From an uncultured Nitrososphaerales archaeon (GTDB lineage Archaea > Thermoproteota > Nitrososphaeria > Nitrososphaerales > Nitrososphaeraceae), in contig CAVQMO010000001.1 in the NCBI GenBank assembly GCA_963713605.1, positions 32,001 to 96,000 of the forward strand: 64,000 nucleotides of DNA, given 5' to 3'. The notes below the pieces were generated by a model, which was not told the origin of the DNA, did not search any database, and saw only the letters and a list, made by a program, of their open reading frames with translations. Positions 1-14,049 of the stretch are shown piece after piece. Made by a program: the position numbers and the translations under genes. Position 1 is the stretch's first letter; each line of letters begins with the position of its first letter.

Positions 1-327
1 AACACGATAGCCCAATTGAGATCTAAACACTTGCCTGCTAATAGCAAGATTAGGTGGTATGGAATTGATCCAAAAAACAGAAAGGTGGAGAATATCATTT
101 CGTCAGTAATAGAGCCATCCATTGTTAAAGAACAAGTTCTTAAAACAGCTGTGGAGGTAACCTGCATGTTACTACGAGTGGACGATGTCTTAATGGCTAA
201 ACCAAAAATGCAGGCTCATACACACGCTGATGGTGTAGAACATTCACATCCAGGAGGAGACAAGAGGCATGATCACTATTTCGATCGACTAGGAAAACAA
301 CAACGGCCCATGCATCACTATTATTGA
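1..327 (+). CDS. Thermosome (group II chaperonin) subunit, C-terminal part, with His-rich tail; starts before window
   Basis: Open from base 1. VIEPSIVKEQVLKTAVEVTCMLLRVDDVL matches the chaperonin C-terminal V.EP..VK...L..A.E....LLRIDD motif, followed by HTHADGVEHSHPGGDKRHDH...MHHYY. Confidence 0.88.
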   Translation, partial: NTIAQLRSKHLPANSKIRWYGIDPKNRKVENIISSVIEPSIVKEQVLKTAVEVTCMLLRVDDVLMAKPKMQAHTHADGVEHSHPGGDKRHDHYFDRLGKQQRPMHHYY

Positions 328-2444: not shown

Positions 2445-3620
2445 CTATGTCAAATATAGTACAGCTAAATAGGCATCAGAAAAAAAGCGCTTGTAATCGA
2501 ACTTTACAATTAAGTTAAGACAAGGCGTCAATAGCAGAAATAATTCACATATGGTTTTCAGACATTGTTGACATAATTCAACTGGAGTATTCCCATTTAT
2601 ACTGACAGTTAGGGAACTGGCAATGGGTAGAGAATTCGTGGGCGAGGATGTGGATATAGAGGGTGACGATTCTGTAGGCGAAGACATTGAGTCACTTGCT
2701 TCATCAACTCCTTTTAATTCTGATTGTACATTTTCTCCATTCTGAAGAGAGCCCCGTATTTGATTTCGGCCTGTTGTTCTGGGATCTCCGGGATTAGTAT
2801 CTAAGACAAAGAAACCATGTCTGAAAAATGTATCTTTGTTCTTGTCGGAGACTGAAGCGACGTACCATACTATAGGATCTCCACCCTTGGTCAAGACACA
2901 GTTTTTACAGAGTTCGATGTCCGGCATCCCCGGAGTTAACTTACCGGTGCCCGCCGCACGTGCTGTTGCGATCTGTTCAGGTGGATTTAATAGGGTAAAT
3001 ATGTCATCCGGATCTTCTTCGCCGGGGTTATCTTTGACTATTGCTATCGCAATTGTTTGGCCTGGAACTAAGTTTGGAGTTCCCGGCGAAACTCCGGATA
3101 GGGGTTCACCCGTTGACGGCTCAACCATGGGATCTATCCTTACAGGAATCTTTGATTCTCCCCACCTCCAGTGCATATGAACACAATCGAACTCAGAAAA
3201 ATATTTGCAGCCAGGTATGAAAATTCCTTGGTTAGAATGGGCTGTGTGAATATTGTCATAGTCGCGTGGCTGACCATCTTTTACTGCTAAAAAAGCTACT
3301 TCATTTATTATCATAGGTTGATCTCCTATATTATTAATCAAACTTGAACCAAAAGTATCAGCATCCCTGATTCTGGCTAATCCAGTATCAGAACCATAGT
3401 CCAGTTTATAAAAGGCAGCGAATCTTTTTAGATTCGGATTGGGTGAATTTGGATCATACCAATCATAGCTTACCTTGGGAACGAACCTGTAACATTCGAT
3501 GGAATTGGGTTCACAGTTATCCACTTCCTTGGACACAATAACGATATCATATGCTATACTCAGGCTGCTAGTATCTCCATCATCCGTCTTGAAATCTACT
3601 CCGGAAAGTAGAGCTCGTCA
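2445..3620 (-). pseudogene. Truncated large extracellular/surface protein
   Basis: 363-aa ORF whose frame stays open upstream of the GTG to an in-frame stop near 3618. A Ser/Thr linker is followed by the first strands of an Ig/cadherin-like repeat (NSLPIASSLTVSINGNTPVEL), then unrelated sequence. Confidence 0.5.
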
Positions 3621-4001
3621 ACTATTTTTTTTAGAGTAGTCTGGCACAACTGTCATAACCTTATTACGAATTCTGTAGTTCTACTCGTCCTGTATGAATG
3701 TACCTCTTCCGGTGCTGCACTTGGTGTACTCCCTGTACCAAGGACTCCGAAACCACCCTTAAAGAGAGTATATGGATATTATGTATAATGCACGAGAGTA
3801 TATGTATACTACCAATATTAGGATATCATAAAGCGGGGTTGAATCATGTAGATTACGAATTTATGCTGTTTTATAATAATGATTATTATTCATGTAACAA
3901 GTCTTGTTCAATAAAATAGGATTTGTACCAGTTATCCCATTAATGGCTTTCTTCGCTAGGAGCCTGCGAAAATGAATGCTTGAGTTTGAGACGTCAGTCG
4001 G

Positions 4002-4256
4002 TTAAAGAGGTTTCATCACGTCTATTAGCCTAGCATTAGTTATGATGCCATCTTGTTCTCTAATTGTAAGATCGACCACGTATTGAAGGTTATTTAACAT
4101 AAAAGTTGTCTGTGCGTCCCATTCCTCTCTTTTTTGTTCATTAGGGAGTGAGAATAATGATCTTAGTTTTAAATTTGTAATGTCTTTTCCATACAGTGTC
4201 TCAATTGCTCCTACTGCTCGAGATTGTACATCACTTTCATTTCTAACCGCATTCAT
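4002..4256 (-). CDS. Small hypothetical protein (possible PepSY-like fold)
   Basis: ATG start, 84 aa, helix then beta strands ending in Y.V.L.I...DG.I; upstream TATA-like TTTTATA. Confidence 0.65.
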   Translation of the reverse strand: MNAVRNESDVQSRAVGAIETLYGKDITNLKLRSLFSLPNEQKREEWDAQTTFMLNNLQYVVDLTIREQDGIITNARLIDVMKPL

Positions 4257-4624
4257 TGCGTATTCCTATAAGGAGAGTAACTATAAAAAAGTATTGATTT
4301 ATCATTCATTTTATAATGTTTAGCCATCAGTATAGTATTATACAATGCGTAGATTACGTTAGTATATCATTTGACAAATCTCTTTATATCTTCAATTTAC
4401 GAAAATCTAATTATTAGAGAATTATGGTCATCATAGTTCCAAAAAGGTCGGTTTAGCTTAAAATCAATGAATTCAATGTATAAAACTTAGATGCAATTGA
4501 CGAGACCAGTATCATGTCCTGCTCGTGCCGTTAATTTCCATTATCTATGAATATCTGATTCTAAATCTAGGAACGTATGGCTTGTGTATAGTCGATGAAG
4601 CGATTCGTAAACTACTTAGAAATA

Positions 4625-4652
4625 CTTAAAAACATTATACGTGTCCTAATAT
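4625..4652 (+). promoter_or_regulatory. TATA-like box (CTTAAAAA) plus downstream GTGTCCTAATAT motif
   Basis: TATA-like element about 40 nt before ATG 4667; the motif recurs at the same spacing upstream of glnA. Confidence 0.5.
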
Positions 4653-4666
4653 TTAGCGAATAAAAG

Positions 4667-5791
4667 ATGGGAATGGAATTCTATGGGGATTCGTACAAAG
4701 GTAATGATGAGCCAATTTTTGTTGGTATACCAACTTTTCTGAAGCTACCTTGGCTTAGATCCCGTCAGGAATTAGAAAAAATAAAACCAGATGTAGCTAT
4801 AATAGGAGAGCCATTCGATTTTGGAACAACGATACGTCCTGGCGCGAGATACGGGCCACGCGCAATCCGTGCAGCCTCAACCGTGCCATCTCCTCCCTAT
4901 GAACATTTCAACATTGAAACGGGAGTGGATCCTTTTGGTGTATTTAAAACTGTAGACTATGGTGACGTTGTAGTGTCTCCTGGCGATGTCATTGAATCAC
5001 ACAGAAGAATGACAGACAAGGTCAAAGAGGTTCTGGATATCGACGGGATTCCTGTAATGTTAGGTGGAGATCACTCAATTACTTTCGCTAACGTGAGAGC
5101 ATTTGCGAAAAAGTACAAAAACATTGGTATGATTCATATTGACACTCATGCTGATTGCGCCCCTCAAGGGCTTTGCGGATTCAAATATGATCATGGGGCG
5201 CATATAAGAAGAATTATGGAGCTGGGGTGTCTAAAAGGCAAAAATTATACACTTATTGGCCCAAGAGGATACTGGCCTGGACCTTATCTCTATAAGTGGA
5301 TGGCTGACCAGGATTTCCAGTGGTTTACAATGCTGGATGTAGAAGAAATGGGAATAGATGCAATTGCTAAGGAAGCAGCCGATAGGGCAAATGATGATGT
5401 CGATGCGGTCTATATAAGCTGGGATATCGATACGTTTGACCCCGCTTATGCGCCAGGTACTGGAGAACCAGAACCTAATGGCCTTACTTCAAGAGAGGGA
5501 ATGAGATTGATGCGATTATTGTCTACTTCTTTTGATCCAGACAAGTTTGCATTTGATTTGGTAGAAGTGGCACCCAACTATGATGTAAGTGATGTCAACT
5601 CCTACAACGGAGGAATCACTTCCGGCTTGGCAAATCGACTAATTGTCGAACTTTTGGCTGGACTTTCACTCACGAAGAAAGGGGAAAAGGAAGGAAATCC
5701 TGTAAGACCAAAGTTCTATCGCGGGAAGGGACATACTTATGACTTTGGTAACGGTCCTAAAGCAGTGCCCCCAAAAAGAAACAATCGATGA
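4667..5791 (+). CDS. Ureohydrolase (agmatinase/guanidinobutyrase/guanidine-hydrolase superfamily), substrate uncertain
   Basis: RPGARYGPRAIR, GGDHS, DTHAD, DIDTFDPAYAPGTG.PEP and VEVAP.YD; all binuclear metal ligands present. Confidence 0.93.
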   Translation: MGMEFYGDSYKGNDEPIFVGIPTFLKLPWLRSRQELEKIKPDVAIIGEPFDFGTTIRPGARYGPRAIRAASTVPSPPYEHFNIETGVDPFGVFKTVDYGDVVVSPGDVIESHRRMTDKVKEVLDIDGIPVMLGGDHSITFANVRAFAKKYKNIGMIHIDTHADCAPQGLCGFKYDHGAHIRRIMELGCLKGKNYTLIGPRGYWPGPYLYKWMADQDFQWFTMLDVEEMGIDAIAKEAADRANDDVDAVYISWDIDTFDPAYAPGTGEPEPNGLTSREGMRLMRLLSTSFDPDKFAFDLVEVAPNYDVSDVNSYNGGITSGLANRLIVELLAGLSLTKKGEKEGNPVRPKFYRGKGHTYDFGNGPKAVPPKRNNR

Positions 5792-6171
5792 TAGATATTA
5801 AAGTCTTAGTGCGTGGGGAAATTGATACTCCTTCATTCGTAAGGATATTCCAATATCCTGATAAGGAAGAGGAATCGATATTTTTCAATTCCGTAGCGTC
5901 GATCAAGAAAAAGATTGAAAGGGGGCTCAAGATCAATGCCAACGAAACACTTGCCATTTTTTGTGCGTATGTTATCGAACAAATGAGAAAGCACAAATCT
6001 CAGGACGAAATCGAAAATGCTGCAAAAGGCATTATTTCAAGTGACCAAGCGTTGATCGGTGTTCCAGAAACTTTGAGAGAAATGAGCTTTGACGTAATTA
6101 TTGATGATTTTCCAGAACAGCGAATAAAATTCCTCGAACCTATGAAGATTAGTAATTATATGATGACTTGA
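5788..6171 (+). CDS. Urease gamma subunit (UreA)-like protein, stand-alone
   Basis: KKKIERGLKINANETLAIFCAYVIEQMRKHKS...IISSDQALIGVPETL aligns by eye with UreA RRLARGLKLNYPE.VALI...IME.AR.GK....L...QVM.GVPEM. ATGA overlap with the upstream gene. Confidence 0.8.
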   Translation: MIDIKVLVRGEIDTPSFVRIFQYPDKEEESIFFNSVASIKKKIERGLKINANETLAIFCAYVIEQMRKHKSQDEIENAAKGIISSDQALIGVPETLREMSFDVIIDDFPEQRIKFLEPMKISNYMMT

Positions 6172-6397
6172 ACAAATTATAGGCACGACTCCACAAGTCA
6201 TAACCCATCGGTTGAAAAACCAATTCTTCATAAGACTAGAAAGAATACTTACGATAAACCAATTGCCGAGTATAACGGACATGCTTACTTGATCTTAGTA
6301 TTATCAAAGGCCAGGATCGTACGGCAATACAAAGTATCACATTGAATACCTGCAAGTCATATATAGCTTAAACTGCAAATTTCTTATCGCTCAAACT

Positions 6398-7504
6398 ATG
6401 GAATCTATTGTATTCGCGGATGGTAGCTATCAATCTTTGATGTGGATTGCTTTTGGGTTATTCGTAGGGATAGCCTTAGCCTTAGACTTAGGGATGATTG
6501 AGGGTATAAGGCGAAGAATATCTTCAAACGATAAGAACTCCATAGACAACAATGTACAGCTTCTAAGTCAGCAGGAAAGGAGCAAGAAAACATTCGAACA
6601 TGCACTGCGTTGGACTATAATCTGGATTTCGCTAGCTGGCGTATTTGCAGGTCTAATTTTCGTTAGTATGGGATATGACAAATCACTTTTGTTCCTAACA
6701 GGATACGCTATTGAAAAATCATTAAGTGTAGATAACATGTTTGTATTTGTGCTAATATTTTCATCACTTGGTATTCCATACATTTATCAGCACAAGGTAT
6801 TGATGCTTGGAATACTGAGCGCAATTGGACTGAGAATAGCCCTCATTCTCGCAGGAATTTCTCTGCTTGAATCATTTCATTGGATGATATACATTTTTGG
6901 TGGGCTATTAGTATTCACCGCAATACGAATGATAGTAGAAAAAAAGGAAAAGAAAATAGAAATTGAAAAGAACATTGCAGTAAGAATTTTGAAAAAGTTT
7001 ATTCCTATCGAGTTAAAAGGTGATACCGGCGACAAATTTCTTCATCGAGCCTCTGATGGCATAATGTATGCAACCCCAATGCTAATTGCGCTAGTGATTA
7101 TCGAGATGACAGATTTGGTGTTCGCCCTTGATTCTATTCCTGCAATCCTTGCGATCACTACAGACTCATTTCTAGTAATAACCTCTAATATATTTGCCAT
7201 ATTGGGTTTGCGGAGCCTGTACTTCCTTCTCGCGGGGATGATAGACAAATTTTACTATCTTAAGCCAGGATTGGCAGCAATACTGCTCTTCATAGGGGTC
7301 AAGATGTTAATATCCGAGTTTTACGAGATACCCGTACCTACTTCCATAGCTGTTATTTTTGGAATTCTCGGATTAGCAATTATGCTCTCGTTTGTTAGAA
7401 TCAAATATGTTTCGGTTAAGGAAGGCAGAAACAAACCAGACGGAGATGTTTCACTCGACAAGAACGATTTTGATGAGAATCGGACAAACAAGTTCTCGGA
7501 TTAG
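6398..7504 (+). CDS. TerC/Alx-family metal homeostasis membrane protein
   Basis: GYAIEKSLSVDNMFVF, QHKVL..GIL.A..LR, IEMTDLVFALDSIPAILAIT and TSNIFAILGLRSLYF signature motifs. Confidence 0.93.
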   Translation: MESIVFADGSYQSLMWIAFGLFVGIALALDLGMIEGIRRRISSNDKNSIDNNVQLLSQQERSKKTFEHALRWTIIWISLAGVFAGLIFVSMGYDKSLLFLTGYAIEKSLSVDNMFVFVLIFSSLGIPYIYQHKVLMLGILSAIGLRIALILAGISLLESFHWMIYIFGGLLVFTAIRMIVEKKEKKIEIEKNIAVRILKKFIPIELKGDTGDKFLHRASDGIMYATPMLIALVIIEMTDLVFALDSIPAILAITTDSFLVITSNIFAILGLRSLYFLLAGMIDKFYYLKPGLAAILLFIGVKMLISEFYEIPVPTSIAVIFGILGLAIMLSFVRIKYVSVKEGRNKPDGDVSLDKNDFDENRTNKFSD

Positions 7505-7591: not shown

Positions 7592-8992
7592 TCACTTACC
7601 TGTTATTTTATTAAGTATTGATAATCCAATTTTTGCAGCGAAGTGATCCTTGATGTTATTTCCAAAGGTAACATTCTGCTCTCCCTTTTTTGCAACAAAA
7701 CCTATCACCGTTGCTCTAAAGTTATGTCTTCGCAATTCATCGAGGATTATATTTGAAATATCTTTAGTTGCGATAATGGTGTGACATCCATTTATCGCAG
7801 CAGTTGGGTTCATGACAAGAGCTTCATTTGAGAGTATCCTTGCAATTTCCTCAAACATCATTGGAATGTCATTGACCACAAGATGACAATTACTTATACG
7901 GGCAAGCTTCCATAGGCCAAGAATACCGTCACTACCTAATGGATGAACGGCTATTATGTTCTCGTTATCCTGCAGGGGGGTCCCAAATACAGGACAATAT
8001 TTTGAGATTATTTTTCCAAGTGAAAAATGTGGTTCACAGAGATTCTTCATACATTCATCTTTTGCAGATACCAGCTCTTGATTGTTGATGCCTTTGTTTT
8101 CTAAAGTTGCAATAATCTTCTCATCTATATGTGCTAGCGTATAAAGACTTAATGCCATCAATGAACCGAGAGGATTAGTGACAATAATCTGCATGGTCTC
8201 TTTAATCTGCTCATAATAAGTAGGTAGTTCTTTGAAGGTGTTAGCAATCCCTGTTGCCCCAAAGAACAGCTTTCCTATTTTAAGAGAACTATAATCATCC
8301 ATCTTGAGATTGTATCTAGATGTAAATGCGTCAAGGTTTTTTCTGATGGTATCAAGTGAAGATTCTTGAGGGGAATCATATATGGGATAGAGGTCAAACC
8401 CTGATGTGCATCCAAGCAAATTCAAATGATCGATGCACCGTGTCATAGGAATGTCTGTATGAAGCTCAGAATCGGGCTCTAGTGTAGGATCAATTACGTG
8501 AGCAGTAGCATTATCGGCAACCGTAAAACCTACCTTATCCCCTCTGTGCAAACCTATGTAGTCCAGCAATGCAAATTGTGCATCTCTATGCTCTGTGACT
8601 GCAGACGTGCTCCTATTAATCGAAACTTTACATCGGAAATTTTTGAAGAAATTATTGAGAATCTCCGTAAAGAATGTAGAATCGTCCTCTATCTCCTTAT
8701 GTATCCGGAACAACGCAAGGGAGTGTTTAAGATCTACCTCGTTTTCAACCGCAGGTTCACGGATGGAAAAGACCCTTCTTGTAAGATCAGGTGTTTTCCC
8801 ATCTGCATAAGGGAATGCGTCGAACCAATTTGTATCCAACTTTATAGAGCTACGTTTCATTTCTTTTACCGCTTGATCAAGTTTCCAACTATCAACTTCA
8901 TTAGAACCAGTAGTAATCCACCTCAAAGGGTCGAACCCCAATTGTCGATATTCTTCTATCCGCCGCCAAAAATCTTCAGTCAACACTGACAT
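7592..8992 (-). CDS. SelD-like (PurM/AIR synthase fold) protein, archaeal SelD-related family
   Basis: N-terminus YRQLGFDPL..., ADNATAHVIDP, LFFGATGI, IIVTNPLG and G.DGI.GL resemble archaeal SelD-like proteins; the catalytic Cys/Lys motif is replaced. Confidence 0.65.
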   Translation of the reverse strand: MSVLTEDFWRRIEEYRQLGFDPLRWITTGSNEVDSWKLDQAVKEMKRSSIKLDTNWFDAFPYADGKTPDLTRRVFSIREPAVENEVDLKHSLALFRIHKEIEDDSTFFTEILNNFFKNFRCKVSINRSTSAVTEHRDAQFALLDYIGLHRGDKVGFTVADNATAHVIDPTLEPDSELHTDIPMTRCIDHLNLLGCTSGFDLYPIYDSPQESSLDTIRKNLDAFTSRYNLKMDDYSSLKIGKLFFGATGIANTFKELPTYYEQIKETMQIIVTNPLGSLMALSLYTLAHIDEKIIATLENKGINNQELVSAKDECMKNLCEPHFSLGKIISKYCPVFGTPLQDNENIIAVHPLGSDGILGLWKLARISNCHLVVNDIPMMFEEIARILSNEALVMNPTAAINGCHTIIATKDISNIILDELRRHNFRATVIGFVAKKGEQNVTFGNNIKDHFAAKIGLSILNKITGK

Positions 8993-12868: not shown

Positions 12869-14049
12869 TTGGACGACAGTAATACCGGAGCTTCTGATGA
12901 CGGTCTAAGCGATAGTGCTATGAATGGTTCATCTCAAGGTCGGGATAAAGGGTTGAACCTCGAAGGCAAGAAATTAAACGACTTGGAAGTATCAAAGAGA
13001 AATCGTAAGTTTTCCGAACATAGCAGCCTTGTGAGCGAAGGAATCATTGCAGGACAAAGAATTGCAAAAATATCCGTTGTTACTCTCATCAGCATTGGAA
13101 TTGTAGAAATTCTTACGGGATACTATAGTGGTAGTGTAGTAGCAACAGCAGACGGTATAGATTCTATGTCTGATGCTGCTATTTCATTTATTGTTCTATT
13201 AGGTCTGCGTATTGCTCACAAACCTGCTGACAAGAAATTTCATTTTGGATACCATAAGGTGGAAAGCTTGCCGCATTGATGGCTGCTATAGGAATGGTAG
13301 CCATAGGTATTGTAATATTTTACAATTCATATCAAGCTATTTTGCACCCACATGAAATAAGGCAACCAATTCTGACGATGGTTGTTTTGGCTGCAGCTGG
13401 TGCAATCTCATTACATAGGGCTTTTCAGATGAGGAATATTGCAAACAAGTACAATTTGTTATCATTGAGAACTGATGCTAAGAATTCGATAAAAGATGGT
13501 TCAGCATCAATAATTGGATTTCTGAGCGTTTTGATAGCTTCCCAGTTTGGATTTTTGCAAATGGATGCCATAGGCGGGATGATAATTGCAGGCTACATTT
13601 TTTCGGTATCTTACATCTCATTAAAAAAGTCATCCTTGATACTTGTAGATTCGTGGCAGAACCCCAAACTCACTGAACTTATTAAGCAACACATCGAACA
13701 AAAGGAGTTTAGAATTAGCCAAGGCCCGGAACTATTACAAACTAAAGTCAAGGTTCGCTCGGTGTTGCTTAGACCAGCCGGAATGGTCTCCCAAGCTGAA
13801 GTGCATATTGAAGTAGATGGTGATAAGCCGCTAAAAGACGTGGAATTGATATGTCTTCAGGTTGAAATGGAGATCCGTTCAAAATTTCCAGATCTAGAAA
13901 GAATTTCGATAATTCCGCATTCATCGATCGCTAAGCCAATGACAACACAATCTACTTCATTCAGGAGATGGATTTCGGTACCTGATATATTGCATCAGCA
14001 TCGGCAACAACAACAACAACAAAAGCACAAGCACGAGCATGGGAAGTAA
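12869..14049 (+). CDS. Cation diffusion facilitator (FieF-like) transporter, split by 1-nt deletion near 13269
   Basis: ADGIDSMSD, KPADKKFHFGYHKVES, then LRTDAKNSIKD and a C-terminal dimerisation domain in the next frame; restoring one T gives VESFAALMAA. Confidence 0.88.
14005..14022 (+). repeat. (CAA)6 microsatellite encoding poly-Gln in the CDF tail
   Basis: caacaacaacaacaacaa read directly. Confidence 0.9.

Follow-up and report, generated by a model that had tools for sequence, protein, structure and literature searches.

A conserved gene pair for a ureohydrolase and a urease gamma paralog in ureolytic ammonia-oxidizing archaea

We analyzed a 64,000-nucleotide stretch of DNA (hereafter "the window") from an uncultured Nitrososphaerales archaeon. 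In this window, a gene for an arginase-fold ureohydrolase of 374 amino acids (aa) (4667..5791, plus strand, ATG start; hereafter "hydrolase") is followed by a gene for a 127-aa paralog of UreA, the urease gamma subunit (5788..6171, plus strand, ATG start; hereafter "UreA-like"). On balance, we favor the interpretation that the pair constitutes a single, translationally coupled operon within the urea-utilization gene set of ureolytic ammonia-oxidizing archaea (AOA), and that they encode a guanidino hydrolase and an accessory protein derived from UreA. The arrangement is real and more general than the window shows; the chemistry of the hydrolase, its metal, and the role of its partner are what we infer from it.

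The gene pair and its association with urease

A first-pass annotation of this DNA had reported that the two genes overlap by ATGA. The two open reading frames (ORFs) do share positions 5788..5791 on the plus strand, a start/stop overlap that is a sign of translational coupling. A 4-base overlap of this kind (ATGA or TTGA) was found in 25 of 29 related loci; in the other four, the gaps between the genes were 3, 3, 6, and 22 bases. Because the overlap recurs in so many loci, the arrangement is evidently not due to chance.

We searched 301 genomes of the class for the hydrolase, UreA-like, ureC, and arginase-fold genes. Full-length UreA-like paralogs (31-49% identity) were present in the family of the source archaeon and in a sister family, and were distinct from weaker cross-matches to canonical ureA. 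In all 29 loci retrieved, which represent two archaeal families, the hydrolase was located directly upstream of UreA-like, with identities of 81-95% for the hydrolase and 36-49% for its partner. A scan of species-representative genomes revealed 302 hydrolase relatives, of which the best 80 were used for locus work. The source records of all 80 bear the labels of ammonia oxidizers or related archaea (Nitrososphaeraceae, Nitrososphaerales, Nitrosopumilaceae, Nitrosopumilales, Nitrososphaera, Nitrosotalea, Nitrosotenuis, Thaumarchaeota, Thermoproteota). UreA-like followed the hydrolase in all 78 assessable loci; the remaining two loci end at the hydrolase. The pair is thus strongly conserved. One locus (L027, genome G283) belongs to an unpublished genome, and its omission alters no count in kind.

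Hydrolase orthologs could be called clearly: full-length matches were at least 76% identical, and no match fell between E 1e-60 and E 1e-172. The hydrolase was present in 81 of the 301 genomes, and ureC in 125. Comparison of the hydrolase table with the ureC table revealed ureC in 80 of the 81 hydrolase genomes, and the hydrolase in only one of 176 ureC-negative genomes, so that the hydrolase is almost wholly restricted to genomes with urease. The sole hydrolase genome without a ureC match is G238 (96% complete); there, a canonical ureA is located at a distance of 6 kb from the pair. UreA-like adjoined the hydrolase in 74 of the 81 genomes, as judged by coordinates and profile search; 2 of the 74 were partly readable.

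The first-pass annotation had described UreA-like as an orphan that is not followed by ureB or ureC. Neither gene follows it in the window, where the next gene (6398..7504) encodes a TerC/Alx-family protein. The term "orphan" holds for the genome of the source archaeon (G000 in our survey, 87% complete), in which canonical ureA-ureB-ureC lies ~600 kb away on the same contig (G000:C1:635474 onward); however, it does not hold elsewhere, since the pair is 2-18 kb from ureABC in other genomes. In five of the five loci annotated over a wider region, the pair is within a urease island. Genes around the pair in these loci encode SSS transporters, Usp, a UT urea transporter, a TPR or ParB-like protein, and a thermosome paralog; NicO, ureABC, and ureEFG are also present. 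Canonical ureA is kept in all five of these genomes and in G000. In 23 of 80 loci, a NicO-like gene was found no more than 2.5 kb downstream, and in L037 a protein with a NikR C-terminal nickel-binding domain adjoins NicO. A functional tie of the pair to urea metabolism is thus well supported.

Features of the hydrolase and the UreA-like protein

The hydrolase matched Pfam Arginase PF00491 with E 2.7e-79 and 267 bits (cut-off 22) over residues 42-330, covering positions 2-279 of the 280 in the profile. Residue conservation was assessed in an alignment of 27 orthologs. The motifs GGDH, DxHxD, and SxDxD, which we take to be the ligands of the binuclear metal site, are present, and all six metal ligands (H136, D159, H161, D163, D253, and D255) were invariant in 27 of 27. 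Judged by these residues, the hydrolase is an arginase-fold binuclear-metal ureohydrolase with a complete metal site. The AlphaFold2 model of the hydrolase, based on 27 near-identical rows, had a mean pLDDT of 42.6, too low for use. A search for longer homologs revealed no fused form among 112 candidates, which is weak evidence.

Comparison with solved structures placed the hydrolase in the guanidinobutyrase / guanidinase / proclavaminate amidinohydrolase subgroup. Its best solved relative was guanidinobutyrase 3nio (176 bits, E 8.8e-51, residues 11-313 aligned), followed by guanidinases 7esr (170 bits, E 8.2e-49) and 9fek (166 bits, E 1.4e-47), proclavaminate amidinohydrolase 1gq6 (154 bits), and guanidinopropionase 3nip (152 bits). 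Several solved agmatinases scored 101-125 bits, and several arginases 92 bits or less. The NCBIfam agmatinase models were both missed (204.3 vs. a cut-off of 302 for NF002564; 156.1 vs. 174.3 for TIGR01230), and the agmatinase label is weak because the hydrolase scores under both cut-offs. Four arginase-fold genes are present in G000, and 294 of the 301 genomes have some arginase-fold gene, whose open frame is commonly ~290-320 aa. Because such genes are nearly universal and the hydrolase occurs in only 81 genomes, the polyamine agmatinase is more likely another paralog. The hydrolase, with ureC in 80 of its 81 genomes, does not have the housekeeping distribution expected of a polyamine-pathway enzyme. 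We infer that it is not an agmatinase in a housekeeping role, and that it cleaves a guanidino (amidino) compound with release of urea.

In the Synechocystis guanidinase, Thr97 and Trp305 are said to set guanidine specificity, according to the passage on these residues in PMC11410670. The Thr97 equivalent is present in the hydrolase: T55 in FGTTIRPG aligns with the second T of SGTTYRPG (7esr), an equivalence that uses an inferred chain-to-native offset of 2 in 7esr. The Trp305 equivalent is replaced: E267 in PGTGEPEP aligns with the W of PGTGWPEP. Both T55 and E267 were invariant in 27 of 27 orthologs. A 4-residue insertion, SPPY, at residues 74-77 is specific to the clade. The first-pass annotation had noted a basic C-terminal extension of ~40 aa, and the protein indeed has 44 residues past the Pfam domain, basic and conserved in 27 of 27 aligned orthologs. 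It had also noted DVNSYNGG as an insertion. This loop is a 7-residue insertion relative to 1gq6; however, loops of similar length are present in 3nio, 7esr, 9fek, and 3nip, and it was rejected as a special feature.

Identity of the hydrolase between G000 and three other genomes was 81-93%. The corresponding values were 66-69% for UreC, 59-70% for UreA, and 56-62% for UreB; UreA-like identity to two compared genomes was 39-41%. Over the first 300 hydrolase codons, amino-acid identity was 84-96%, and identity at four-fold degenerate sites was 19-40% (saturated). Because the protein is near-identical while the four-fold sites are saturated, the hydrolase has been under long-term purifying selection. 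Recent gene transfer as the cause of the 94% hydrolase identity seen across families was ruled out by the same four-fold values. These comparisons point to extreme purifying selection on the hydrolase, stronger than that on urease. We would guess that many oligomer interfaces or several partners lie behind this constraint.

UreA-like matched Pfam Urease_gamma PF00547 with E 4.5e-11 and 43.4 bits (cut-off 23.9) over residues 25-106. It missed both urease-gamma equivalog models (41.8 vs. a cut-off of 123 for NF009712; 37.6 vs. 82.3 for TIGR00193). Among solved structures, sequence matches were 4fur_A (E 1.7e-8) and 1a5k_A (E 1.3e-7). An AlphaFold2 model based on 29 orthologs had pLDDT 92 and pTM 0.86. 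In a Foldseek search with this model, the top 17 rows were urease gamma chains or ureases containing a gamma domain, and target-normalized TM was 0.78-0.83 for stand-alone gamma chains (0.79-0.83 for UreA chains such as 2kau_A and 4fur_A). The protein is thus a diverged UreA homolog, as the first-pass annotation had stated. It retains LKLN..E and GVPE, the most conserved UreA motifs. It differs from UreA in being only 23-28% identical to archaeal UreA and in being encoded after a ureohydrolase, not before ureB. Relative to five canonical archaeal UreA proteins it has 19 additional N-terminal residues, in agreement with the ~20 first reported, and ~8 extra C-terminal residues. The N-terminal extension is predicted by AlphaFold2 to be a beta-hairpin with strands at residues 2-9 and 17-23. 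The invariant residues specific to the paralog (G10, E11, and D13) are all in this extension. Length varied between 124 and 140 aa across 29 loci. The three nearest ESM Atlas clusters were all archaeal; their few members with a record were most often from the phylum Nitrososphaerota. By origin, UreA-like is a duplicate of the urease gamma subunit; it has the UreA fold, is non-catalytic, and has acquired an N-terminal hairpin.

In one family (f5), the gene order is hydrolase, UreA-like, NicO, ureA, ureB, ureC on a single strand. The UreA-like protein of this family is 108 aa (counted from the first Met of the frame) and is without the hairpin. In three of three genomes of this family, the hydrolase ends in a different tail, which is longer, His-rich, and of type HIHSHKHGHHAHNH. 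His-rich tails are typical of nickel-handling proteins. The f5 hydrolases with this tail are at L045 1-1320, L046 4024-5364, and L047 1840-3144; the short UreA-like gene is absent in L047.

Disrupted copies of both genes were also observed. The hydrolase frame has an in-frame TAG in L035 (389-1501) and TAA in G286:C49:4241-5356, and is split in L122 (2492-3616); split UreA-like genes occur in L071 and L128 (the downstream ORFs). All are in metagenome-assembled or draft multi-contig genomes, and either sequencing error or decay could account for them. Genome G187 carries the pair twice (G187:C1:125998-127484 and G187:C18:2-1146). The pair is also present in several genomes that are complete in a single contig, such as G235, G244, G159, G171, G004, and G133.

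Upstream element, relatives, and neighboring genes

The regions upstream of the hydrolase share ACGTAGATTAC, one half of the palindrome ACGTAGATTACGT. In the window, a near-perfect, distal palindromic copy of this conserved element, GCGTAGATTACGT, is present at 4347..4359 (unstranded). A proximal degenerate copy, TTCGTAAACTACTTAG (4604..4619, plus strand; three mismatches to ACGTAGATTAC), lies directly 5′ of a TATA-like box, AAATACTTAAAAA (4620..4632, plus strand), the putative archaeal promoter of the pair. Matches to CGTARNYTACKT number only 9 in G000, of which 2 are upstream of the hydrolase gene. With one mismatch allowed, 55 of 105 assessable loci had ACGTAGATTAC 55-62 bases upstream of the ATG, directly 5′ of a TTAG-N-AATATTTAA box, and a second, more upstream copy was found in 51 of the 105. 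The box TTAG-N-AAT(A/T)TTTAA occupied the same place in most of 28 upstream regions. In two archaeal families, the spacing between ACGTAGATTAC(GT) and the downstream hydrolase start is conserved; the coordinates of the element are 253-263 and 326-336 in L010, and 13088-13207 and 13974-14027 in L037. L037 and L044 have further copies of the element between the SSS gene and the ParB-like gene. A search for the exact 11-mer revealed no copy before ureABC in L038. The palindrome is likely the operator site of a dedicated regulator, as its position and conservation suggest; the adjacent ParB-like HTH protein of L037 is a candidate for this role. An Rfam search of 3500-7000 (E-value threshold) gave no match, and no guanidine riboswitch was found there.

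In a library of 1.84 billion proteins, the nearest full-length relative of the hydrolase (P0119) was 54% identical, and the next full-length ones were 44% or less. The 54% relative represents haloalkaliphilic archaea (Natronorubrum, Natrarchaeobius), and five haloarchaeal plasmids carry the gene under the name "agmatinase family protein". In Natronorubrum bangense the order is ureB-ureC-ureA-ureG-ureD-ureE-ureF (opposite strand), PhoU-like regulator, hydrolase, and MFS transporter (opposite strand). The order in Haloarcula marismortui is formamidase, thermosome, Usp, APC permease, SSS, PhoU-like regulator, and hydrolase, and that in Halalkalicoccus jeotgali is SSS, AbrB-type regulator, and hydrolase. 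SSS proteins encoded adjacent to the hydrolase were 35-39% identical between the two phyla; the second SSS of G244 was only 25% identical. The haloarchaeal protein (WP_136350976.1 in N. bangense; WP_007188496.1 in H. marismortui pNG700) shares SPPY, GTGEPEP, and YDVSD.NSYNGGITSG with the hydrolase. Its context is also similar, with a related SSS gene adjacent, one copy beside urease, and one beside thermosome and Usp. It differs in having another, acidic tail, an adjacent PhoU/AbrB-type regulator, and no UreA-like gene; and unlike the loci of ammonia oxidizers, the haloarchaeal loci have no ACGTAGATTAC within 300 bases upstream (up to two mismatches allowed). Because these orthologous modules are without UreA-like, the association of hydrolase and SSS with urea-type nitrogen genes evidently predates the partner, and UreA-like is an addition specific to ammonia oxidizers.

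Among characterized enzymes, GbuA (3nio) and GpuA (3nip) of Pseudomonas aeruginosa are similar to the hydrolase in fold, metal motifs, and length of the loop after the YD motif. In comparison with these two, the hydrolase has the SPPY insertion, Glu rather than Thr in GTG(T/E)PE, a conserved tail ~40 aa longer, and the UreA-like partner gene. Metformin hydrolase (8snf, 8ryi; 117-122 bits vs. the hydrolase) is described as a ureohydrolase that requires nickel and a second, non-catalytic subunit; that subunit is reported to be a second arginase-fold protein, whereas the partner of the hydrolase has the UreA fold. GdmH (Sll1077; 7esr, 7oi1) and the Nitrospira inopinata guanidinase (9fek) share with the hydrolase the subgroup, the Thr97 equivalent, and nickel-related neighbors. 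Unlike GdmH, the hydrolase has Glu at the Trp305 position, no riboswitch, and a UreA paralog as accessory gene. We take the nickel-loading chaperones of GdmH to be HypA/HypB-like. The relevant passages of PMC11410670 present these chaperones as what GdmH uses instead, and describe for a guanidinase the same logic of a urea product feeding urease in a nitrifier.

The TerC/Alx-family gene after the pair (6398..7504, plus strand) encodes a metal-homeostasis membrane protein (TIGR03718, 343.8 bits, cut-off 246.4; PF03741). Among 94 loci searched, only those of the 7 closest relatives have this gene after the pair, and it is thus a lineage-specific neighbor. The window begins with the 3′ end of a thermosome (Cpn60/TCP-1) paralog with a His-rich tail (1..327, plus strand; Cpn60_TCP1 profile). 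The ORF that runs into it (L139:17795-18325) corresponds to Cpn60_TCP1 profile positions 357-490, and the preceding ORF to positions 1-346. Thermosome paralogs are also beside the pair or ureA in L037, L041, and Haloarcula pNG700. The thermosome paralog and an SSS transporter gene, both just upstream of the window, are each split into two ORFs (L139 14749-18328); these may be either pseudogenes or assembly indel errors.

Other ORFs of the window were observed in passing. Two ORFs at 12869-14049 (136 and 257 aa) have a 4-base overlap, multi-pass membrane stretches, and a His-rich end, and by eye resemble one cation-efflux-type protein in two pieces. A 466-aa ORF at 7592-8992 (minus strand) matched NCBIfam NF038049, "SelD-related putative sulfur metabolism protein" (256 bits, cut-off 250), with no Pfam match. 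A 363-aa ORF at 2445-3536 (minus strand) with a Ser/Pro/Thr-rich C-terminal part had no Pfam or NCBIfam match. A screen of sequencing runs revealed 14 DNA runs, mostly soil or plant metagenomes, with 0.36-0.70 of the sampled words, and 6 RNA runs with small shares (0.08-0.13), which are no evidence of habitat.

Possible function of the pair

According to the interpretation that we favor, the hydrolase would cleave a guanidino (amidino) compound, other than agmatine in a housekeeping role, to give intracellular urea, and the urease of the cell would convert this urea to ammonia for assimilation and ammonia oxidation. By analogy with bacterial guanidinase and metformin hydrolase, the hydrolase would probably be nickel-loaded. 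Hints of nickel are the NicO-like permease with a His-rich loop, whose gene directly follows that of the hydrolase in all 7 loci without UreA-like, the NicO-like genes and NikR-domain protein near the pair elsewhere, and the His-rich hydrolase tail of family f5. UreA-like would be an accessory made in step with the hydrolase, and would most likely bind through its acidic GExD hairpin and the basic tail of the hydrolase; in family f5, loss of the hairpin coincides with the changed tail, which we counted in favor of a partner role. Prediction of a 1:1 complex of the two proteins, run without controls, gave a score of 0.00 and a mark of 0.32, and speaks neither for nor against binding. The accessory may aid assembly, metal loading, or docking to urease, and would be dispensable in some lineages. 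A dedicated transcription factor acting at the ACGTAGATTAC palindrome would switch on the operon, in some genomes together with the adjacent SSS transporter.

Several observations count against this interpretation. The partnership of UreA-like with the hydrolase, proposed in the first-pass annotation, holds as adjacency in 74 of 81 genomes but is not obligatory: UreA-like is absent beside the hydrolase in the other 7 and in three of three haloarchaeal loci. The hydrolase therefore works without it. In all 7 partner-less loci the hydrolase still has the basic tail. UreA-like diverges fast (36-49% identity) next to a near-frozen hydrolase. The hydrolase is absent from 45 of the 125 ureC genomes. 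In regard to nickel, G000 had no PF03824 (NicO) match at its 87% completeness, and where a nickel permease is present it may serve urease alone. The TerC/Alx family is presumably linked to manganese, which would suit the usual Mn-ureohydrolases. Only half of the guanidinase signature is present, as the alignment indicates (Thr97 equivalent retained, Trp305 replaced by Glu267). The survey passage of Palatinszky et al. 2024 (PMC11410670) reports no known guanidine-degradation genes in ammonia-oxidizing archaea. An expressed "agmatinase (SpeB)" clustered with an SSS (urea) transporter appears in PMC11131427 for one soil clade.

That last report also fits an ordinary putrescine-making agmatinase (SpeB) located near urease for urea recycling, with UreA-like as a decaying or neutral duplicate. 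Databases label the cluster agmatinase or agmatinase family protein (some members guanidinobutyrase), the best NCBIfam models are agmatinase models, and Glu267 in the pocket could bind the agmatine amine. We nevertheless consider this explanation unlikely. The scores are under both model cut-offs, and the hydrolase is in only 1 of 176 ureC-negative genomes although an arginase-fold gene is in 294 of 301. Furthermore, UreA-like does not appear to be decaying, in view of its constant length in 29 loci, its invariant residues, and a pLDDT of 92. A related question is whether UreA-like acts on urease itself, as an alternative gamma subunit, assembly factor, or regulator, and owes its place in the operon to co-regulation alone. 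Retention of LKLN..E, GVPE, and the whole gamma fold would be explained in this way, as would the confinement of UreA-like to genomes with urease and its place two genes ahead of ureA in f5. However, UreA-like was never found without an adjacent hydrolase (29 of 29 loci, 78 of 78 loci, and 74 of 81 genomes), and the start/stop overlap suggests a fixed stoichiometry with the hydrolase. Canonical ureA is kept alongside it in the five widely annotated genomes and in G000, where the pair is 600 kb from ureABC. A role on urease alone thus seems improbable.

If the substrate were free guanidine, the hydrolase would be a second, independently evolved archaeal guanidinase that gives AOA direct access to guanidine. 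It scores 166-170 bits against solved guanidinases, its best match being 176; it retains the Thr97 equivalent; there are hints of nickel in the NicO neighbors and the His-rich f5 tail; and the negative Glu267 at the pocket mouth would attract guanidinium. Against this, the position of Trp305, given as a specificity residue in the relevant passage of PMC11410670, is Glu in 27 of 27 orthologs, and the Rfam search of 3500-7000 yielded neither a guanidine riboswitch nor any other match. The survey in the same source, as excerpted, reported no guanidine genes in AOA and covered known clades only. We regard this possibility as doubtful. A bolder form of our favored interpretation is that UreA-like is an adaptor that docks a Ni-dependent guanidino hydrolase onto urease or its nickel-insertion machinery, in a two-enzyme assembly that makes ammonia from an abundant guanidino compound, possibly guanidine. 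This is speculative and we do not expect it to hold; if it were true, ureolytic AOA would have an overlooked source of energy and nitrogen, although they are currently held to lack such pathways.

No description of the UreA-like partner or of the pair was found in the literature, subscription journals and supplements being outside the scope. Archaeal agmatinases are treated as polyamine enzymes in PMC10753782, PMC6790972, and PMC8573960, and PMC12625717 reports that blastp revealed no guanidine-degradation genes in floodplain nitrifiers. Ammonia-oxidizing archaea account for a major share of nitrification in soils and oceans. To our knowledge, their substrates beyond ammonia are few: urea and, in one case, cyanate. 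The pair is confined to ureolytic AOA and has been passed over as "agmatinase" and "urease subunit gamma". Should the pair form urea from a guanidino compound, archaeal nitrification would have an additional substrate, and the presence of a urea-forming enzyme inside a urea-consuming gene island would be accounted for. Recruitment of a urease structural subunit by an unrelated hydrolase would, if true, be a new route to a heteromeric ureohydrolase. The conserved putative operator provides a handle on organic-nitrogen regulation in ammonia-oxidizing archaea.

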